This document shows positions 21,979 through 35,961 of a DNA stretch of 64,000 nucleotides, one piece after another. Within the stretch, counting starts at the first letter, position 1, and each line of letters starts with the position of its first letter. The DNA is from Myxococcota bacterium (lineage in GTDB: Bacteria; Myxococcota_A; UBA9160; UBA6930), in NCBI GenBank assembly GCA_965223705.1, contig OZ245015.1:1856001-1920000 (forward strand), read 5' to 3'. The notes under the pieces were generated by a model. That model saw only the letters and a program-made list of their open reading frames with translations. It searched no databases and was not told the origin of the DNA. The position numbers were made by a program, and so were the translations under genes.

Positions 21979-23232
21979 CTAACGGAGTGTGAGTCCGGCG
22001 AGGTCGATCTCGGGCTCGCGCCCCTCGATGCAATCCGCGAGAACGCGACCGGAACCACACGATAGGGTCCAGCCGAGGTGTCCGTGGCCCGTATTCACGA
22101 ACACGTTCGGGATCGGTGTCGCTCCGAGAAGCGGCGTCCCGCTCGGTGTCACGGGGCGAAGCCCCGCCCACGGCTGCGGGGTGCCGGCCGCATAGCACGC
22201 CGCAAACTCCGGGAACACCTCGATCGCGTTGTCGACGATGGCTCGGCAGCGCCGGGGATCCGGCGTCGCGTCGTAGCGCGTGACTTCCGCTGAACCGACG
22301 ACGCGCAGCCGGTCGCCGATGGGTGCCAGCGCGTAGAACCGGCTCTCGTCGATCACCGGCATTCGCGGCGGGCGTTCCCAAGCGGTTGCCTCCACCGTGA
22401 CCGACACGCCTTTTACGGGATAGACCGGAAGCCTGATTCCCAGAGGACGGAGGAGTTCCGGCGAATGAACGCCCGCGGCGACGACGACGCCGTCGGCTTC
22501 GATGCGATCGCCGTGGAGTATGACGCCCCGAACGGCGCCTCCCGAAACGTCGAGTCCGCGCACGCCGGTCTTCAGATGAAACTCAGCACCTTGCGCGCGG
22601 CAATAGTCGGCGACGGCGTGGGTGAACTTGTAGCAATCGCCCAGTTCGTCACCGGGGAAGTAGATTCCGCCCGCGAGCTGACTCGACGCACCATCGAGCG
22701 CGGGTTCGAGGCGAACGCAGGCCCCTCGGTCGAGCACTTCGAAACGCATACCGTGATCTCGCATCGACTCGCTGAGTTCGGCAGCCGCGTCGAGGGCGGA
22801 CGCTTCGGTATAGATCTTGATGCACCCCTCGGTGTTTAAGTCATACGCCGTACCGATGTCGTCGCGGACTTCGCGAAACGACTGCTGGCTCAGCAGCGCG
22901 AGGCGGAGGTTCGCGAGGGTGTTCGCGCGAAATCGCTTCGGTTGACACTCGCGCAGAAACGCCGTGCCCCAGCGGAGGACGTGGGGGATGGCGCGCGCCC
23001 GCAGGAGGACCGGCGCTTCTTCCTTGCCGAACCAACGCGCCAGTTGGAGCGGCATCCCCGGCTGCGACCAGGGCATGACCTCGCTCGCGTGAACGATTCC
23101 GCCGTTCGCAAAGCTCGCCCCCACGGCGAGGTCCTCCTCGCGCTCGAGGACGACGACGCGGTGCCCGCGCTTCGTCAAGTAGTAGGCCGTCATCGTTCCG
23201 ATGATGCCGGCTCCGACGACAACGACCTTCAT
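21979..23232 (-). CDS. dadA: D-amino acid dehydrogenase
   Basis: ATG 23232. VVGAGIIG, ASFANGG, PVYPVKG, WAGLRPVTP, NTGHGHLGWT. Confidence 0.85.
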   Translation of the reverse strand: MKVVVVGAGIIGTMTAYYLTKRGHRVVVLEREEDLAVGASFANGGIVHASEVMPWSQPGMPLQLARWFGKEEAPVLLRARAIPHVLRWGTAFLRECQPKRFRANTLANLRLALLSQQSFREVRDDIGTAYDLNTEGCIKIYTEASALDAAAELSESMRDHGMRFEVLDRGACVRLEPALDGASSQLAGGIYFPGDELGDCYKFTHAVADYCRAQGAEFHLKTGVRGLDVSGGAVRGVILHGDRIEADGVVVAAGVHSPELLRPLGIRLPVYPVKGVSVTVEATAWERPPRMPVIDESRFYALAPIGDRLRVVGSAEVTRYDATPDPRRCRAIVDNAIEVFPEFAACYAAGTPQPWAGLRPVTPSGTPLLGATPIPNVFVNTGHGHLGWTLSCGSGRVLADCIEGREPEIDLAGLTLR

Positions 23233-23948
23233 GTCGCGCCTCCCGTTGCTTGGCCGAGCAGAACCCCGACGCCGAACGTGATGCCCCCGGCGAGCAAACC
23301 GAACAGCAACTGTCGGCCGGCTCCTTTCCAAACGGGCTGGTGCGTCACCCGGGTGGCAGCGGCTCCGACGGCGAGCAGTGCCGCGCAGGAAGCGAGCGCC
23401 GACGCGACGAAGGCGTTCTCGAGGATGAGCCACGGCAGGAGCGGCACGGCGGCGCCCGTGACAAACGAAAGAAACGAGTAGAGGGCGGCCCGCACCGGGG
23501 CACCGATTTCATTCGGATTGATACCGAGCTCCATCAGCGCGTGTAGGTGCAGCGCGCTCTCCTTCTTCTCGTGCACCGCGTGGGCCAAGTGGAACGCCAC
23601 GTCCGCGGACACTCCGTTGTCCAAGAGAAGCTGGGTGAGGTCGGCGCGTTCTTCGTCCGGGTAGGCTTCGAGGTGCTCGCGTTCGAGGGCGAGCTCACGT
23701 TGGAAGACCTCGCGCTGGGTCTGCATCGAGACGTACTCGCCCGCCGCCATGGAGCAGCCGCCGGCCAGAAGCCCCGCGACGCCCGCGACAATGACCGTAG
23801 CGGGGTCGCCTTGGCCGGCGGCGACGCCCATGACGAGGGCTCCGTTCGAGACCAAGCCGTCCGAGACGCCGAAGACGCTCGCTCGCAGAACGCCGTCGGC
23901 GCCTCCGGCGGAGTGCTCGCTTCGGTGCGGGTGGGGATCGTCGCTCAC
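23229..23948 (-). CDS. VIT1/CCC1 family Fe/Mn transporter
   Basis: LRASVFGVSDGLVS, SMAAGEYVS, acidic cytosolic segment, GAAVPLLPW. Confidence 0.9.
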   Translation of the reverse strand: MSDDPHPHRSEHSAGGADGVLRASVFGVSDGLVSNGALVMGVAAGQGDPATVIVAGVAGLLAGGCSMAAGEYVSMQTQREVFQRELALEREHLEAYPDEERADLTQLLLDNGVSADVAFHLAHAVHEKKESALHLHALMELGINPNEIGAPVRAALYSFLSFVTGAAVPLLPWLILENAFVASALASCAALLAVGAAATRVTHQPVWKGAGRQLLFGLLAGGITFGVGVLLGQATGGAT

Positions 23949-30602: not shown

Positions 30603-30689
30603 CTCCTCGAAGAGGCAAACCTGTGGAAACGCAGGGACGCAAAGCCGTTGCCCTCGCTCTGTGCAGGGTCGAACGGCCGTCGAAGGGAG
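30603..30689 (+). ncRNA. c-di-GMP-I (GEMM-I) riboswitch, variant with U at the C92-equivalent position
   Basis: Core GGCAAACCTGTG-GAAA-CGCAGGGACGCAAAGCC. P3 is GCCGTT/AACGGC plus GCCCT/AGGGT with a bulged G. P1 is CTCCTCG/CGAAGGGAG. Confidence 0.85.
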
Positions 30690-30694
30690 AACGG

Positions 30695-30781
30695 ATGCCT
30701 TTTTTGCTCCTGGGCCTGCTCGGCCTGCTCGGCCTGACGCTCGCGGGTTCTCGCTATGCGGAGCTCACGACGCGCCGCTAG
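30695..30781 (+). CDS. putative 28-aa hydrophobic small protein MPFLLLGLLGLLGLTLAGSRYAELTTRR
   Basis: SD GGGAG (the riboswitch P1 3' strand) 5 nt before the ATG, one TM-like segment, basic C-terminus. Below the ORF-track cutoff. Confidence 0.55.
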   Translation: MPFLLLGLLGLLGLTLAGSRYAELTTRR

Positions 30782-30793
30782 CGACCGCGCCGA

Positions 30794-31807
30794 CTACGCC
30801 TTCGCCGGAATCCACGGGGACACGTACACGCGTACGGAGCCACCGATGCCCTTGAGGTCGTCGGCGTCGATCAACATGCGAAACGAGTGGAAGAGATCCG
30901 GGTTCGACACTTCGGTCTCGTCCAGAACCGGTTGGGTGGCCACGATGCCGGCCGCCGGCGCGAGTTTGAGAATCCGCGAAGCCCGTGGGACACAGGGGCC
31001 GATCAAACCGACCCCGCGGCGAAAGCGGCTGCCCACCATGCCGACGACGACACGACCGTGATCGAGTGAAAGCCTCGGGAGCGGCAACGCGGGGTTCTTG
31101 TCGCGCAGGGCGACCAACCGACGGCGCATTTCGAACGCGGCAGGGACGGCCTCTCCGGGACCTTCGAAATAGAGCAGGGCGCCATCTCCTTCGAAGTCGT
31201 GGACGTCGCCGCAGTGGTAGACGCCGATCTCCGCGACGGTCTCCATGAACTCCTGAACCAGCGCGAGCACGTCGGGCGGCTCGAGTTCCATGACCAGCGG
31301 TGTCGAGTCGACCATGTCGACGAACAGCACCGTCAGGTCGCGCTGAAACGGAAGCTCGCGCCCGTGGAGGAACGAGCGATCTTCGAGGCTCGAGAGAAAC
31401 GGGTCGCCGCCCCCGGCATCGAGCTCCGGAGGCGAGTCGCCCGCCACCCAGGTGTACGAATCGCGGCGGCTCGCGTCGACGTTGGGTGTGTCCTGTCCCG
31501 CGAGGGCCCATGCGGAATAGCCGCCCGCGAGGACCGCGACGTCTCGGTAACCCAGGCTGAGGAGGAGCCGCGCCACGCGCGAGCTTGAAGACTCGCCGCT
31601 TCAGAGGCAGTACGCGACGATCGGCGTGCCCCGATCGATGTCGGGCAGCAGGATCGGATCGTCGTCGAGAAAAATCGGGACCGCATTCGGCAAACCCTTG
31701 GGCAGCTCCTCGAAGCCTTTCCGTCGCCGGACATCGAGCACCAGAGGTGCGTCGCTCGAGGCGAGCATCGGAGCCAGCAGGGCCGGCGTGAGGGTGTGGA
31801 TCGACAT
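30794..31807 (-). CDS. rhodanese (selenocysteine, CxU) - class III adenylate/guanylate cyclase fusion, 337 aa with UGA readthrough at 31601-31603
   Basis: ORFs 31601..31807 and 30794..31576 are in one frame, separated only by TGA. The joined sequence LVLDVRR..PIVAYCL-U-SGESSSSRVARLLLSLGYRDVAVLAGGYSAW is a complete rhodanese domain. Cyclase motifs TVLFVDMVDST and FEGDG follow. There is a strong SD (GGAGGAG) at 31807 and none before 31576. Confidence 0.8.
31566..31585 (-). promoter_or_regulatory. putative bacterial SECIS element
   Basis: mRNA +16 to +35 after the UGA reads AGC-U(bulge)-CGCGC-GUG-GCGCG-GCU. The apical loop starts with GU at +25. Confidence 0.6.
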
Positions 31808-31854
31808 GTTTTCTCCTCCCCGGAACGGTAGCGGTCCGCGCTACGCTCCGGCCT

Positions 31855-32640
31855 ATGCGCAGGTTTTTTGCCGCTGTTCTCGCCATCGCCTTCCCGGTAG
31901 CCGCTCCGGCCGTCGATTTTCCGATCGAAGACGCCGAAGTGCGTTCGTGCATCGATCGCTCTCTGCCCGAAAAAGCGATGACGCAGGAAATCGAGGTCCA
32001 CGTCCGCGATCAAGACGGGCCGGTGAGCGACTCCGCCGTCGAGCTCTACTGGAAGCGCTTCGAGCCGGATAGCTCCCGAGCCCTGCTGCGGTTTACGGAT
32101 CCGCCGCGACGCGCCGGGGTCGGCGTGCTCCTCATCGAAACCGAGGAGCCCGAGCCGGAGATGTACCTCTACTTGCCCGAGCTTCGGCAGACGCGCCGGG
32201 TGACCGGGAAAACCCTGGCCGGATCGATGCTCGGAACCGATTTCAGCTACGAGGATTTCGCTCATTTTCAGGGGATTGCCCTCGCGAGCGAAGTCGAGCG
32301 CATCGAGGATCGAGATCTCGACGGTCGGGCCGCGTTCGTCCTTGAGACGACGCCCCTCGACGAGAACTCCGGCTACCAGCGGATCCTGACCTTCATCGAT
32401 CGGGAACAGTGCATCCCTGTGCGGATGGAGTTCTTCGCCCGGAACGGCAACCTCCGCAAAGAGCTCGTCGTGCATCGCGACCAGATCCGAGAGATCGGCA
32501 ACCGGTTCATTCCGCATCGAATCGTGATGTCCGATCTCAAACAGGGCAGTCACACCGAGCTTGTCGTCGTCGACGTCGAAGTCGATCCGAAGTTGCGAGA
32601 TCGTTTCTTCGAGCCGTCCGAGCTCGAGATCGGTCGCTAG
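31855..32640 (+). CDS. outer-membrane lipoprotein-sorting (LolA-like) protein
   Basis: Signal peptide, LLRFTDP, MYLYLPELRQTRRV, MLGTDFSYEDF. This family usually accompanies MMPL/RND genes. Confidence 0.85.
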   Translation: MRRFFAAVLAIAFPVAAPAVDFPIEDAEVRSCIDRSLPEKAMTQEIEVHVRDQDGPVSDSAVELYWKRFEPDSSRALLRFTDPPRRAGVGVLLIETEEPEPEMYLYLPELRQTRRVTGKTLAGSMLGTDFSYEDFAHFQGIALASEVERIEDRDLDGRAAFVLETTPLDENSGYQRILTFIDREQCIPVRMEFFARNGNLRKELVVHRDQIREIGNRFIPHRIVMSDLKQGSHTELVVVDVEVDPKLRDRFFEPSELEIGR

Positions 32641-32647
32641 GCACCGA

Positions 32648-35359
32648 ATGTGGGGTCACGTGCTCTTCGGGCCGGCCCGGCGGCCGTGGCTCATCGGCGC
32701 GTTCGTCCTCGGCTTGAGCGTCGTCGCAGCGCACACCTTGTTCGATTTCCCGTCGGGTCGGTTGCGCCTCCCGATCGACGCCTCCATCGAAGGGCTCTTG
32801 CCGGCCGGTGATCCGGCTCTCGAGGTCTTCGAAGCCACGAAGGAAACGTTCGGCGACGACGATGTGCTGTTGATCGCGTGGTTCTCCGATGCGCTGTTTT
32901 CGCCGTCGGTCCTCACCGCGCTGAAGACATTTCACGGCGAGCTCGTCGCGATGGATTTCGTCGAGGCGGTCGACAGCCTGGTGTCCGCCGAGCGTCTGAC
33001 GACCGATGACGAGCAGACGCACGTCGAATCGTTCTTGGCCGAGATTCCGGAAGATGGGAAGGCTGCGCAGGACCTCGCCGATGCGCTCCTCAGCGACCCG
33101 CTCTACCGCGGCCAGATCGTTTCGAACGACGGCACGGGGACACTTTTCGTGGTTCGCTTCGCGCCCGGTGGGAGCGACGAGCTCGAAGCGCGGGTAGCGG
33201 CGGTGGCCGCCTCGGCCGCCGAGGCGGCACCGCCCGGCACGCAGAGCTTCGCGTCGGGACCGGTCTTCGCGCGGATCGAGACGAACCGGCTGCTGTTCCG
33301 GGATCTCCGCCTGGTGCTCCCGCTCGCCGTCCTCGGCACGCTCCTCGTGGCCACGCTCGGGATGAGGTCGCTCCACGGTGTGCTCCTGCCGCTGCTGGCG
33401 AACGGTGTGTCGCTCCTCGTGACCCTCGCGATCTACGCGGCGTCGGGCTTCTCGCTGAACTTCGTCACCGTCGTCATGCCGCCCGTCGTCTTTGTCGTGG
33501 GCTTCGCGTACGCGGTCCACGTGGTAAGCGATTTCGATCGTCAGGTAGCGAACGGGCTCGTGGGACGGGAGGCGATCGAAGCGGGGCTCACGGGCGCGAT
33601 CCTGCCGCTCACCTTGACTGCGTTCACGACGGCCATCGGTTTCGCTTCACTCGCGGCGAGCGCCATCGAGTCGATCCGGTTGTTCGGCCTGTTCTCGGCG
33701 CTGGGAACCCTCCTGGCCTGGGTCGCTTCCTGGGTCGTCGTGCCCATCGGCTTGCGGGCGATCGGAGCAAGCTCCGGCAAACGGGTCGGCACGGGCCGAC
33801 TCTTGGCGCTCGCCCCCAAGCTCGCGCATTTCGACGTTCGCCACCGCGGCGCGATCGTGATCGCCGGCGGGCTCATCGCTCTGGTGAGCCTACTCGCATC
33901 GACGCGGATCGAGGTCAGCACGGATTTCCTCGGGAACTTTCCGGAAGACAGCGCCGTGAGGCGAGACTTCGAAAGACTTTCGGGGAGCTTCTCCGGCGCC
34001 GTGCCGATTCAGGTGCTTCTCCGCGCGGACCGCGCCGGTGCGCTCCTCGAGCCCGGCGTCCTGCGCCAGATCGCCGAGCTCGATCGCTGGCTCACGGAAC
34101 AACCGGAAATCGGCGGCGTCGCGTCCTTCGCGGATGCCGTCGCGCTTCTCTACCGCGGTTTTGCGCCGGGCATCCCCGAGGAGGAAGTCCCCGGGAGCGC
34201 CGGGCTCACCGAGCAGCTGCTGCTCCTGGGCGGAGGCGACGAGATCGCTCGCTTCGTCGACGCGCGCCACCGCGAGACACTGCTTCACGTCCGAAGTCGG
34301 GCCGTCGCGTCCGGCGACCTCGCCGCGTTGATTTCTCGCATCGAGCATCGCCTCGCGGAACTGGGGGGCGGCATCGAGGCGCACGTCACGGGAAGTTCGG
34401 TCCTGGTCGCGCGCACCATCGACGACATCACCCGCGGCCAGATGCGGAGCTTGCTCGGCGCGCTGCTCGTGATCTACGGGGTGCTCGCGACCCTGTTCGG
34501 CTCCTTCCGTATCGGAGCGCTGGCCCTGGTTCCCAACGCGTTGCCCATCCTGGTGTACTTCGGGCTCCTCGGCTTGTCGGGGATCACGCTCAACGCGACG
34601 ACCGGCCTCGTCGCCTCCATCGTCCTCGGCATCGCCGTCGACGACAGCATTCACTTTCTGTCGCGCTTCAACACCGAAGCGCGTCGCGTGGCGGACGAAA
34701 GAATCGGTGTCGAGCGGGCGCTCTCGACGGTGATCCGCCCGGTGACGTTCACGACCGCGGCGATGTGCCTGGGCTTCTTGGCCCTGCTCGCCAGCGAGCT
34801 CCGCAATCCGATGGATTTCGGAGTGCTCGCCGCGGCAACACTCGCGTTCGCCTGGTTGCTCGACTTGACGTTCACGCCCGCACTCGCGAGTCGTTTGAGG
34901 TTCGTCACCTTGTGGGAGGCGCTCACCGTCGACCTGGGCGCGGCGCCCCACCGCACGATCCCGCTCTTCTCCGGCTTGACGCACCGACAAGCGCGGGTCG
35001 CCGCACTGATGGGGACGATTCAGTCCTTCGACGGGGGGACGCGGGTGCTTCAGATCGGCGACGAGGGGAGTGAGATCTGCGTTGTGATCGACGGGGAGCT
35101 CGTCGCGACGCTCCCCCGCGAAGGAGGTGACCGCGTGCTTCGCCCGCTCGAGCGCGGCGACCTCATCGGCGAGGTGGCGTTGTTTCACGGGACGCGCACG
35201 GCCAATGTCGATGCGCGCACTCCGGTTCGGGTGCTGCGGCTCAACGACCGGTGTCTCGAGCGCCTGCAGGATCGCTATCCCCGAATCGCCGCCCAGCTGT
35301 ATCGGAACCTGGGAGATATTCTCGCGTCGCGGCTCGCCGACACGACGGGCCGGCTGTAG
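32648..35359 (+). CDS. MMPL/RND-family transporter with C-terminal cyclic-nucleotide-binding domain
   Basis: ATG 32648. Two TM repeats (TTAIGFASL; LGIAVDDSIHFL). CNB domain IPLFSGL..GDEGSEICVVIDGEL..GDLIGEVALFHGTRTANV. Confidence 0.88.
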   Translation: MWGHVLFGPARRPWLIGAFVLGLSVVAAHTLFDFPSGRLRLPIDASIEGLLPAGDPALEVFEATKETFGDDDVLLIAWFSDALFSPSVLTALKTFHGELVAMDFVEAVDSLVSAERLTTDDEQTHVESFLAEIPEDGKAAQDLADALLSDPLYRGQIVSNDGTGTLFVVRFAPGGSDELEARVAAVAASAAEAAPPGTQSFASGPVFARIETNRLLFRDLRLVLPLAVLGTLLVATLGMRSLHGVLLPLLANGVSLLVTLAIYAASGFSLNFVTVVMPPVVFVVGFAYAVHVVSDFDRQVANGLVGREAIEAGLTGAILPLTLTAFTTAIGFASLAASAIESIRLFGLFSALGTLLAWVASWVVVPIGLRAIGASSGKRVGTGRLLALAPKLAHFDVRHRGAIVIAGGLIALVSLLASTRIEVSTDFLGNFPEDSAVRRDFERLSGSFSGAVPIQVLLRADRAGALLEPGVLRQIAELDRWLTEQPEIGGVASFADAVALLYRGFAPGIPEEEVPGSAGLTEQLLLLGGGDEIARFVDARHRETLLHVRSRAVASGDLAALISRIEHRLAELGGGIEAHVTGSSVLVARTIDDITRGQMRSLLGALLVIYGVLATLFGSFRIGALALVPNALPILVYFGLLGLSGITLNATTGLVASIVLGIAVDDSIHFLSRFNTEARRVADERIGVERALSTVIRPVTFTTAAMCLGFLALLASELRNPMDFGVLAAATLAFAWLLDLTFTPALASRLRFVTLWEALTVDLGAAPHRTIPLFSGLTHRQARVAALMGTIQSFDGGTRVLQIGDEGSEICVVIDGELVATLPREGGDRVLRPLERGDLIGEVALFHGTRTANVDARTPVRVLRLNDRCLERLQDRYPRIAAQLYRNLGDILASRLADTTGRL

Positions 35360-35373
35360 CCCGCGAGCAGCGG

Positions 35374-35886
35374 CTAGGGGATTCGCCCCTTTTCCATCGC
35401 TTTTCGATAGGAGCAGTCCGCGGGCGAGCGGCACTCGGCATAGATCTCGTGCCGGTGGTCGCGGATCGTGAGCCCATGAGCGGCGGCGACCTCGCGCTGT
35501 CGCGCCTCGATCGCCTCGTCTTCGAACTCGAAAATCTGTCCGCAGGTGGTGCAGATCAGATGGTCGTGATGGGCGCCGAGATCCGCGAGTTCGTAGCGCG
35601 CCTGGCCGTCCGTGAAATGGCGCTCCTCGGCGACCGAGGCGTCCACCAGTAAACGCAGCGTTCGATATACCGTGGTGAGGCCAACACTTGGATCGAGTTT
35701 CTTAACGTTGTCTGTGAGCTCTTGGACGGTGAGGTGGCCGTTCGATTCCAAGAACACGTTGAGCACGAGGTCCCGTTGCCGCGTGTGCTTCAGCCCTTCA
35801 CCTTCCATGTGCCGAGCGAGGAGCGAGCGCGCGCGCTCCGCGCGGGCGACTGCCGCGCGGCTTCGTTCGCTGTCGCTGTTCTCCAC
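35374..35886 (-). CDS. fur: Fur-family transcriptional regulator; start uncertain
   Basis: TRQR, HLTVQEL, VGLTTVYRTL, HHDHLICTTCG, HRHEIYAEC. Confidence 0.88.
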   Translation of the reverse strand: MENSDSERSRAAVARAERARSLLARHMEGEGLKHTRQRDLVLNVFLESNGHLTVQELTDNVKKLDPSVGLTTVYRTLRLLVDASVAEERHFTDGQARYELADLGAHHDHLICTTCGQIFEFEDEAIEARQREVAAAHGLTIRDHRHEIYAECRSPADCSYRKAMEKGRIP

Positions 35887-35961
35887 CCGAACCCCCTCGC
35901 AGACCTCCCGGCAATGAAATCCCAGAATGGGATCGCTTGCCAACTCATCGCCTGCACGGGG

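Follow-up and report, generated by a model that had tools for sequence, protein, structure and literature searches.

A predicted selenocysteine cyclase gene diverges from a LolA-like/MMPL operon

The window analyzed here is a 64,000-nucleotide stretch of DNA from a Myxococcota bacterium (contig OZ245015.1), and the locus of interest within it sets a predicted selenocysteine (Sec)-containing nucleotide cyclase head-to-head with a membrane transporter that carries a cyclic nucleotide-binding (CNB) domain. The cyclase gene (30794..31807, minus strand) encodes a 337-residue fusion protein that was assigned by read-through of the frame, Pfam, AlphaFold2, Foldseek, and VIA-align. Its rhodanese domain, with a C-x-U motif, spans residues 14-101 (31505..31768, minus strand; PF00581, E 1e-9), and its class III cyclase domain, placed by alignment, Foldseek, and VIA-align, spans residues 151-337 (30797..31357, minus strand). 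On the opposite strand, a gene for a LolA-like periplasmic protein of 261 residues (31855..32640, plus strand; PF17131, E 1.4e-42), whose N terminus reads as signal-peptide-like, is followed after 7 base pairs (bp) by a gene on the same strand for a 903-residue MMPL/HAE3-type RND transporter (32648..35359, plus strand), assigned with Pfam and NCBIfam.

A first-pass annotation of this DNA had placed the two divergent start codons 47 bp apart, and its coordinates are borne out: the cyclase ATG (31807, minus strand) and the LolA-like ATG (31855, plus strand) flank a 47-bp intergenic region (31808..31854) that contains the ribosome-binding site of the cyclase gene. An imperfect inverted repeat (31820-31851) occupies most of this gap, and no clear ribosome-binding site precedes the LolA-like ATG. 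The gap contains no sigma-70 consensus, and a promoter and terminator scan of the locus returned nothing.

The in-frame TGA codon aligns with cysteine in homologs

The cyclase frame crosses a single TGA at codon 69 (31601..31603, minus strand), within the motif YCL-U-SGES, which we assign as Sec69 of a C67-x-U69 pair. Homolog counts out of 120 given below refer to the best 120 of 306 database matches to the cyclase. Site 69 can be aligned in 115 of these, every one of which carries Cys at both positions 67 and 69, and the five nearest homologs end prematurely just past the codon-69 site, which is the outcome expected if their codon is also TGA. Among genome loci, codon 69 is TGA in 23 and Cys in 31, and the TGA letters of the window are unchanged in contigs of four DNA runs, all from one study that is possibly the source of this DNA; a sequencing error or a pseudogene stop was ruled out on these two grounds. 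The genome also carries selA, selB, and selD, each scoring above its cut-off, and tRNA-Sec (selC). The Sec assignment made in the first-pass annotation therefore stands, resting on the Cys-aligned TGA, its recurrence across loci, and the complete selA/B/C/D set, and, as judged from sequence, the rhodanese-cyclase is a selenoprotein.

The hairpin behind the UGA has a folding z of -0.20 in the window gene, and Cys forms fold equally well. A call of a Sec insertion sequence (SECIS) element from folding energy was rejected because this measure does not discriminate Sec from Cys forms. At the predicted SECIS loop, 14 of 20 Sec forms have the codon CGG, which none of the 31 Cys forms has (five Sec loci were not parsed); the window gene has CGC there.

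The cyclase domain retains metal-binding residues and departs from the adenylyl cyclase pair

The rhodanese domain matches GlpE (Z 13.9, VIA-align) and does not reach the cut-off of the selenoprotein model NF041203 rhodanese_LYCAU (47.4 versus 115 bits). The AlphaFold2 model of the whole protein (predicted local distance difference test 90.8, predicted template modeling score 0.88) adopts a class III cyclase fold, with which Foldseek agrees. The top VIA-align rows, Cya2 (Z 22.3, root mean square deviation 2.3, 181 aligned) and CyaB (Z 21.9), are tied with each other and with others, and Pfam makes no cyclase-domain (Guanylate_cyc) call on the window protein.

The metal-binding aspartates Asp164 and Asp208 are kept in 119 and 120 of the best 120 homologs, Arg245 in 120, and the catalytic Arg278 in 115 (Lys in 4). 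At the transition-state Asn site, the window protein has Pro274, and the homologs have Asn (72), His (31), or Pro (16). Of the two base-selecting sites, the first is Asp204, which occupies the place of the adenylyl cyclase Lys in the alignment and is invariant (120 of 120). The other is Gly267, where homologs most often have Ala (56) or Ser (56) and less often Gly (5). This Asp204/Gly267 combination stands in place of the adenylyl cyclase pair (Lys plus Asp/Thr), which is absent; compared with the guanylyl pair, it has Asp where Glu is usual and a small residue at the second site. Guanylyl cyclases are reported to use Glu, an acidic residue, with a small second residue as the GTP-selecting pair (PMC4215837), and a UTP pocket with an Asp has been described (PMC11224242; bioRxiv 10.64898/2026.08.12.744502). 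Because of the base-selecting residues, their partial likeness to the guanylyl pair, and the described Asp-bearing UTP pocket, the predicted product is likely not cyclic AMP (cAMP) by the usual rule. Cyclic GMP (cGMP) is our tentative candidate, cyclic UMP (cUMP) and cAMP each appear unlikely, and we regard the formation of no product at all as less likely again.

Another distinctive residue of the cyclase domain is Cys199 (HCGDV; 31211..31213, minus strand), which was noted in the homolog alignment and may serve the C-x-U pair as a redox or metal partner. It stands where Gly is usual in 120 of 120 rhodanese fusions among the best homologs, and a rhodanese-less sister clade has Cys199 in 0 of 118 scored members and a new CxxxC in 120 of 120. 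This single evolutionary contrast, which matches the pattern published for a Sec-peroxiredoxin/phosphatase fusion, suggests an intramolecular relay from the rhodanese domain to the cyclase domain. In the stand-alone cyclase clade, composed mostly of loci titled Methylomirabilota, the rhodanese and Cys199 have been lost, whereas the CxxxC insert is invariant and a C-terminal Cys is frequent; this is possibly a second, metal-binding switch.

The MMPL transporter ends in a CNB domain with an intact pocket

The MMPL protein contains PF03176 twice and, as had been annotated, ends in a CNB domain (cNMP_binding, PF00027; residues 792-876, E 1e-12; 35021..35275, plus strand). In 95 members of its family, the second-repeat acidic motif is well kept (Asp665 and Asp666 in 91 and 92), and the first-repeat Asp is missing throughout. 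The protein scores below every NCBIfam cut-off; by family membership, it would export lipid. The phosphate-binding cassette of the CNB domain has Gly841 (95/95), Glu842 (83/95), and Arg850 (83/95), and in solved CNB structures the corresponding Gly, Glu, and Arg contact the ribose and the cyclic phosphate (PMC11224242). With these pocket residues intact, the domain is, as first proposed, a plausible receptor.

Transporters of this MMPL-CNB type are found in 64 of 193 genomes of the window's order and are near-core in the order Nevskiales (127 of 161 genomes). The same genome also encodes a second LolA-like/MMPL-CNB operon (C1 2981915-2985400) that is 40% identical to the first, faces a glyoxalase-like gene, and has a CNB domain without the conserved Arg. 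Variants at other loci bear a C-terminal TerB-like domain or long N- or C-terminal extensions, and at one locus (L146) a CNB-patatin gene lies directly upstream of the MMPL-CNB gene.

The position upstream of the pump holds cyclases at above-chance frequency in two lineages

From the window's order, 79 MMPL-CNB loci of 62 genomes were surveyed after two CNB-only matches were removed from 81. A class III cyclase is present in the flank at 6 of these 79 loci, versus 1.5-2.1 expected. At three loci in two genera, versus 0.18-0.25 expected, the cyclase is head-to-head with the LolA-like gene and immediately upstream of it. Two of these loci, both in one genus (g35), have a tandem cyclase-AAA arrangement, and the third, in the other genus (g48), has a zinc-ribbon-cyclase-AAA-TPR protein. 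One further locus has a tail-to-tail cyclase, and a sister genome of g48 has no cyclase within 480 bases. Note that related genomes are not independent and that the per-genome counts are lower bounds; taken as two events, the excess has p ~0.01-0.03.

In Nevskiales, to which Sinimarinibacterium belongs, a cyclase lies directly upstream of the LolA-like gene at 14 of 26 loci, six of which came from genomes picked for their rhodanese-cyclase and 20 of which were spread across the ranking (both figures referring to the 26). Thirteen of the 14 are co-oriented zinc-ribbon-cyclase-AAA proteins, whose genes precede LolA-like and MMPL-CNB in a conserved, operon-like order and whose base-selecting residues are Gln and Thr; one is a divergent, unrelated cyclase. 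The rhodanese-cyclase itself, present in 27 of 161 Nevskiales genomes, is located away from the pump slot. At three Nevskiales loci, a second cyclase-AAA gene stands in tandem, and one MMPL-CNB locus from Binatia has no cyclase in the slot. At least four other cyclase arrangements thus occupy the slot that the Sec-cyclase fills in the window; the slot cyclase upstream of LolA-like/MMPL-CNB exceeds chance in two lineages, and its type varies by lineage.

The exact gene pair was found in a single narrow clade

The rhodanese-cyclase and the pump were also sought together in other DNA. Two short metagenome contigs, both from one species, carry the Sec-cyclase head-to-head with the LolA-like gene, with identities to the window of 65-67% for the rhodanese and 65% for the LolA-like protein; the metagenome scan returned only these two. 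In addition, the three nearest LolA-like homologs (95, 73, and 73% identity) and three near cyclases (91, 72, and 72%) lie on contigs of the same size and source, of 13048, 16088, and 5485 bases. Because size and source are identical, these three relatives very probably carry both genes on one contig, where adjacency and the MMPL gene were not seen. The adjacency is consequently not unique to the window genome, being present in one metagenome species and probable in three more close relatives. The exact pair does not extend beyond a narrow clade of about five close relatives, within which it is kept down to ~65% identity.

Most cysteine forms of the cyclase lie among metal-resistance genes

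To describe the wider family, we compared 61 distinct cyclase-family loci, all from other genomes, with flanks of 2-18 kb and duplicates removed. Recurrent neighbors are multicopper oxidase, cytochrome c, TolC, DUF411, MerR, P1B ATPase, CusA/B, CDF, and DUF326 proteins, with MerB found once, and a single locus has a CNB-less MMPL at 7 kb. Copper or heavy-metal resistance genes lie within 6 kb of 27 of 31 Cys forms versus 3 of 23 Sec forms. In one gammaproteobacterial clade, all 25 Cys forms are metal-flanked, as are 2 of the 6 from elsewhere; metal-flanked forms outside this clade belong to three other lineages, making four altogether on a tree that leaves out eight rows of family f9. The gammaproteobacterial Cys forms are usually co-oriented inside copper-resistance islands and are candidate copper-sensing cyclases whose hosts include cultured bacteria.

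The Sec form of the window has no metal-resistance neighbors. The only metal-related genes near it are a Fur-family regulator (35374-35943, minus strand), which converges on the MMPL stop across a 14-bp gap, and a VIT1/CCC1 metal transporter (23229-23948, minus strand) 7 kb off. The first-pass annotation had proposed a redox or sulfur input through the Sec rhodanese. Redox or sulfur as the sole candidate input is not supported because so many Cys forms sit amid copper and heavy-metal resistance genes. These neighbors, together with a known copper-activated cyclase (PMC4626032), point to copper as a possible input for the Cys forms, with an oxidant or a sulfur species possibly taking that role in the Sec forms.

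The distribution of the rhodanese-cyclase is patchy: of 193 genomes in the window's order, 14 carry it; it is in none of the 32 other genomes of its own family and in 18 of 225 genomes of its class, and no relative of it was found in viral contigs. Automatic annotation in JGI records names the fusion, for which the ESM Atlas also has a cluster. At two Sec-form loci (L043 and L050), the gene is clustered with HAMP-type cyclases, and L050 also has a CNB-fused ion channel, a candidate for another receptor of the cyclase family. One genome (G025) carries the rhodanese-cyclase as two overlapping halves that are separated by 125 kb and lie on opposite strands, reflecting a rearrangement or misassembly.

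The neighboring cyclic di-GMP riboswitch is a bystander

A cyclic-dinucleotide riboswitch had been placed at the 3′ end of the cyclase gene and counted as part of the same circuit. A cyclic di-GMP (c-di-GMP)-I aptamer is indeed there (30604..30684, plus strand; 48.1 bits versus an Rfam cut-off of 35), as a unit separate from the cyclase-pump pair. A single-purine 3′,5′-cyclic nucleoside monophosphate (cNMP) lies outside the ligand class of such aptamers. The consensus GGCAAA is matched, and the element has a G that we take to be at position 20. The choice of G20 or A20 is described as telling c-di-GMP from cyclic GMP-AMP (c-GAMP) aptamers (PMC6140456). Antisense to the cyclase, the riboswitch lies on the plus strand 110 bp past the cyclase stop. 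Right after it, a GGGAG ribosome-binding site and an ATG (30695) open a 28-residue open reading frame (ORF; 30695..30781, plus strand). Because it is on the opposite strand and has its own ribosome-binding site and ORF, the riboswitch is outside the cyclase mRNA, and a role as a 3′ regulator of the cyclase was rejected on the same grounds. The aptamer is also in neither the cyclase nor the pump leader, with 1.17 kb and a whole opposite-strand gene ahead of the LolA-like start.

The 28-residue ORF, whose stop lies convergently 12 bp from that of the cyclase, has no family match above cut-off. Its product is hydrophobic, Leu/Gly-rich with a basic tail, and may be the relic of a secreted-protein gene; we take it to resemble a C-terminal sorting signal, a likeness with no hidden Markov model support. 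The genome's sole other c-di-GMP-I copy (L078:7717-8214, minus strand) has the same layout and fronts a PilZ-domain gene and a DEAD-box-like helicase. The aptamer is found in 7 of 33 genomes of the family, and the relatives' copies (seven caught of eight) lie before genes whose translations read as PilZ-like, transglycosylase-like, or secreted proteins. No Rfam match was found at any of the nine cyclase-homolog loci scanned. We conclude that the riboswitch is a bystander to the cyclase-pump pair.

Discussion

What we report are the anatomy of the genes and statistics on their order, from which product, binding, and gating are predicted. We tentatively favor the view that the locus encodes a cyclase-coupled RND exporter in which the cyclase of the upstream slot was swapped for one with a selenol/thiol redox or metal switch. 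The window's clade would have placed the rhodanese-cyclase in the slot, and the C67-x-U69 selenol/thiol pair would be the reactive site for sulfane sulfur, an oxidant, or a soft metal, for example Cu(I). The signal would then pass to Cys199 on the cyclase domain and switch the dimer, which would make a nucleotide other than cAMP, with cGMP as first guess, and so supply the CNB domain of the pump. Binding of the cNMP at the CNB tail would gate the transporter and alter the hand-off of lipid to the LolA-like carrier. Because the Sec-cyclase holds a position that is filled elsewhere by unrelated cyclases, it is likely that the pump responds to redox or metal stress. The most specific version, in which a redox, sulfane-sulfur, or copper cue acts through a Sec69-Cys199 relay to yield cGMP or cUMP that gates an RND lipid pump directly, all within one module whose cyclase is swapped from lineage to lineage, we consider doubtful as a complete chain.

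A number of observations weigh against the coupled-exporter reading. The first-pass annotation had envisaged a rhodanese-cyclase/MMPL-CNB module conserved across genomes, and that expectation fails: the LolA-like/MMPL-CNB genes adjoin the cyclase at none of the 61 other family loci, and the cyclase is at none of 123 other MMPL-CNB loci. Outside the narrow clade, the two genes are on separate contigs or far apart, and the pairing within it can be explained by vertical inheritance alone. Four genomes of the order and four of five Sec-form genomes from other phyla, all incomplete, yielded no MMPL-CNB match. Co-occurrence was dropped as evidence for pairing, because in Nevskiales it is at background (24/27 versus 103/134, p 0.2) and the figure for the window's order (9/13 versus 54/179; p 0.07 within family f9; one of the nine CNB-only) is confounded by kinship. 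No adjacent cyclase is present at 75 of the 79 order loci, and the held-out family f13 has 0 of 17, with one cyclase in a flank. The host genome encodes three class III cyclases besides this one and another MMPL-CNB, which has no cyclase. Chemistry adds further doubt, in that Pro replaces the catalytic Asn in the window protein's clade, Lys or Gln takes the place of Asp204 in the other slot cyclases, and the window CNB shows no corresponding change, its Thr900 being the most frequent residue (55/95). Because the slot cyclases are of the Lys/Gln type and the CNB is unaltered, a cGMP product may not match a cAMP-type receptor. What is supported is that class III cyclases are taken into this slot repeatedly; the exact pair is limited to one clade.

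The most serious competitor to the coupled exporter, which we judge possible though less probable, is that these are two independent systems: a mobile copper- or thiol-stress cyclase, which would signal to other receptors, landed once, in an ancestor of the clade, beside an MMPL-CNB pump that reads the general cAMP pool supplied by other cyclases. Its best argument is the combination of Lys/Gln slot cyclases with an uncompensated window CNB and three other cyclases in the genome. The metal-resistance context of the family, the patchy spread of the cyclase, the Nevskiales genomes that hold both genes with a different cyclase in the pump slot, and the precedent of a copper-activated class III cyclase (PMC4626032) are all in keeping with it. 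However, it requires a coincidental landing in a cyclase slot, 47 bp from the LolA-like gene, that was then kept to ~65% identity, and the Sec form in the window lacks metal-resistance neighbors.

We consider it improbable that the cyclase domain is a pseudo-enzyme that binds a nucleotide or partner under rhodanese control and makes no cNMP. The replacement of Lys by Asp, the variable Asn site, and the missing Pfam call would fit such a protein, but the metal aspartates and both arginines are almost invariant, and Ma1120 of Mycobacterium avium is reported to work without the Asn (PMC4215837). Very improbable is a four-part circuit in which the riboswitch transcript, running antisense into the cyclase 3′ end, couples c-di-GMP to the cNMP module, for which the convergent ORF and the lack of any intrinsic terminator found between the two stops speak, but against which stand the aptamer's own translation start, laid out like the PilZ-preceding copy, the unrelated genes fronted by the family copies, and the absence of Rfam matches at homolog loci.

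Viewed against known systems, both halves of the proposed coupled exporter are variants of sensor-fused class III cyclases and HAE3/MMPL exporters. The YHS adenylyl cyclase of Mycobacterium phlei is likewise a soluble class III cyclase with a small Cys-bearing sensor and is activated by copper, but its YHS sensor is C-terminal, it has no Sec, it makes cAMP, and it is not known to have a linked transporter (PMC4626032). The guanylyl cyclase Cya2 of Synechocystis (PDB 2w01) shares the fold, tied in score with adenylyl cyclases. Cya2 and Ma1120 also share the acidic/Gly base-selecting pair (PMC4215837), whereas the window enzyme differs from them in its Asp instead of Glu at the first site, in its identity of 22-27%, and in its rhodanese input domain. 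Form 3 of the rhodanese-like selenoproteins (NF041203; PMC13188914) has, as described there, the same rhodanese fold, C-x-U loop, and Cys homologs, and the window enzyme differs in its lower score and in its fusion to a cyclase. A Sec-peroxiredoxin/PP2C phosphatase fusion similarly joins a selenoprotein domain to a signaling enzyme with a subfamily-specific Cys, but its sensor and output are different and it is likewise uncharacterized (PMC2398784).

Lipid exporters of the HAE3/MMPL group (HpnN, BstA, MmpL; TIGR00921) are reported to have the same two MMPL repeats, a GxAVDDxIH helix, and an adjoining LolA-like gene (PMC6304351); the window pump departs from them in its C-terminal CNB domain, its missing first-repeat Asp, and its scores below the NCBIfam cut-offs. 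The Pycsar and Pucsar systems also set a class III cyclase with a non-adenylyl pocket beside a CNB-fused protein (PMC11224242; bioRxiv 10.64898/2026.08.12.744502), but the window has a full RND transporter in place of a TIR or short membrane killer, and its genes are divergent instead of operonic. PADLOC matches to PycC (E 1e-11 to 1e-16) came from three homologs only and were weak and generic, which does not place the pair in either system, and no TIR or short transmembrane effector recurs among the neighbors of the cyclase family. In the open-access literature, we found no paper on a rhodanese-cyclase fusion or on CNB-fused MMPL pumps. The main text of a 2026 selenoproteome review (PMC13188914) lists a CxU rhodanese and does not contain the word cyclase.

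If the enzyme is active, a nucleotide cyclase would join the selenoproteome, and the protein would offer a tractable test of how a selenol/thiol switch controls a class III cyclase; Cys versions exist in cultured environmental bacteria, namely Sinimarinibacterium, Solimonas, and Hydrocarboniphaga. If the CNB domain gates transport, an RND/MMPL pump would be under direct second-messenger control, and an exchangeable cyclase slot would predict, for each lineage, the signal that controls the export of envelope lipid.

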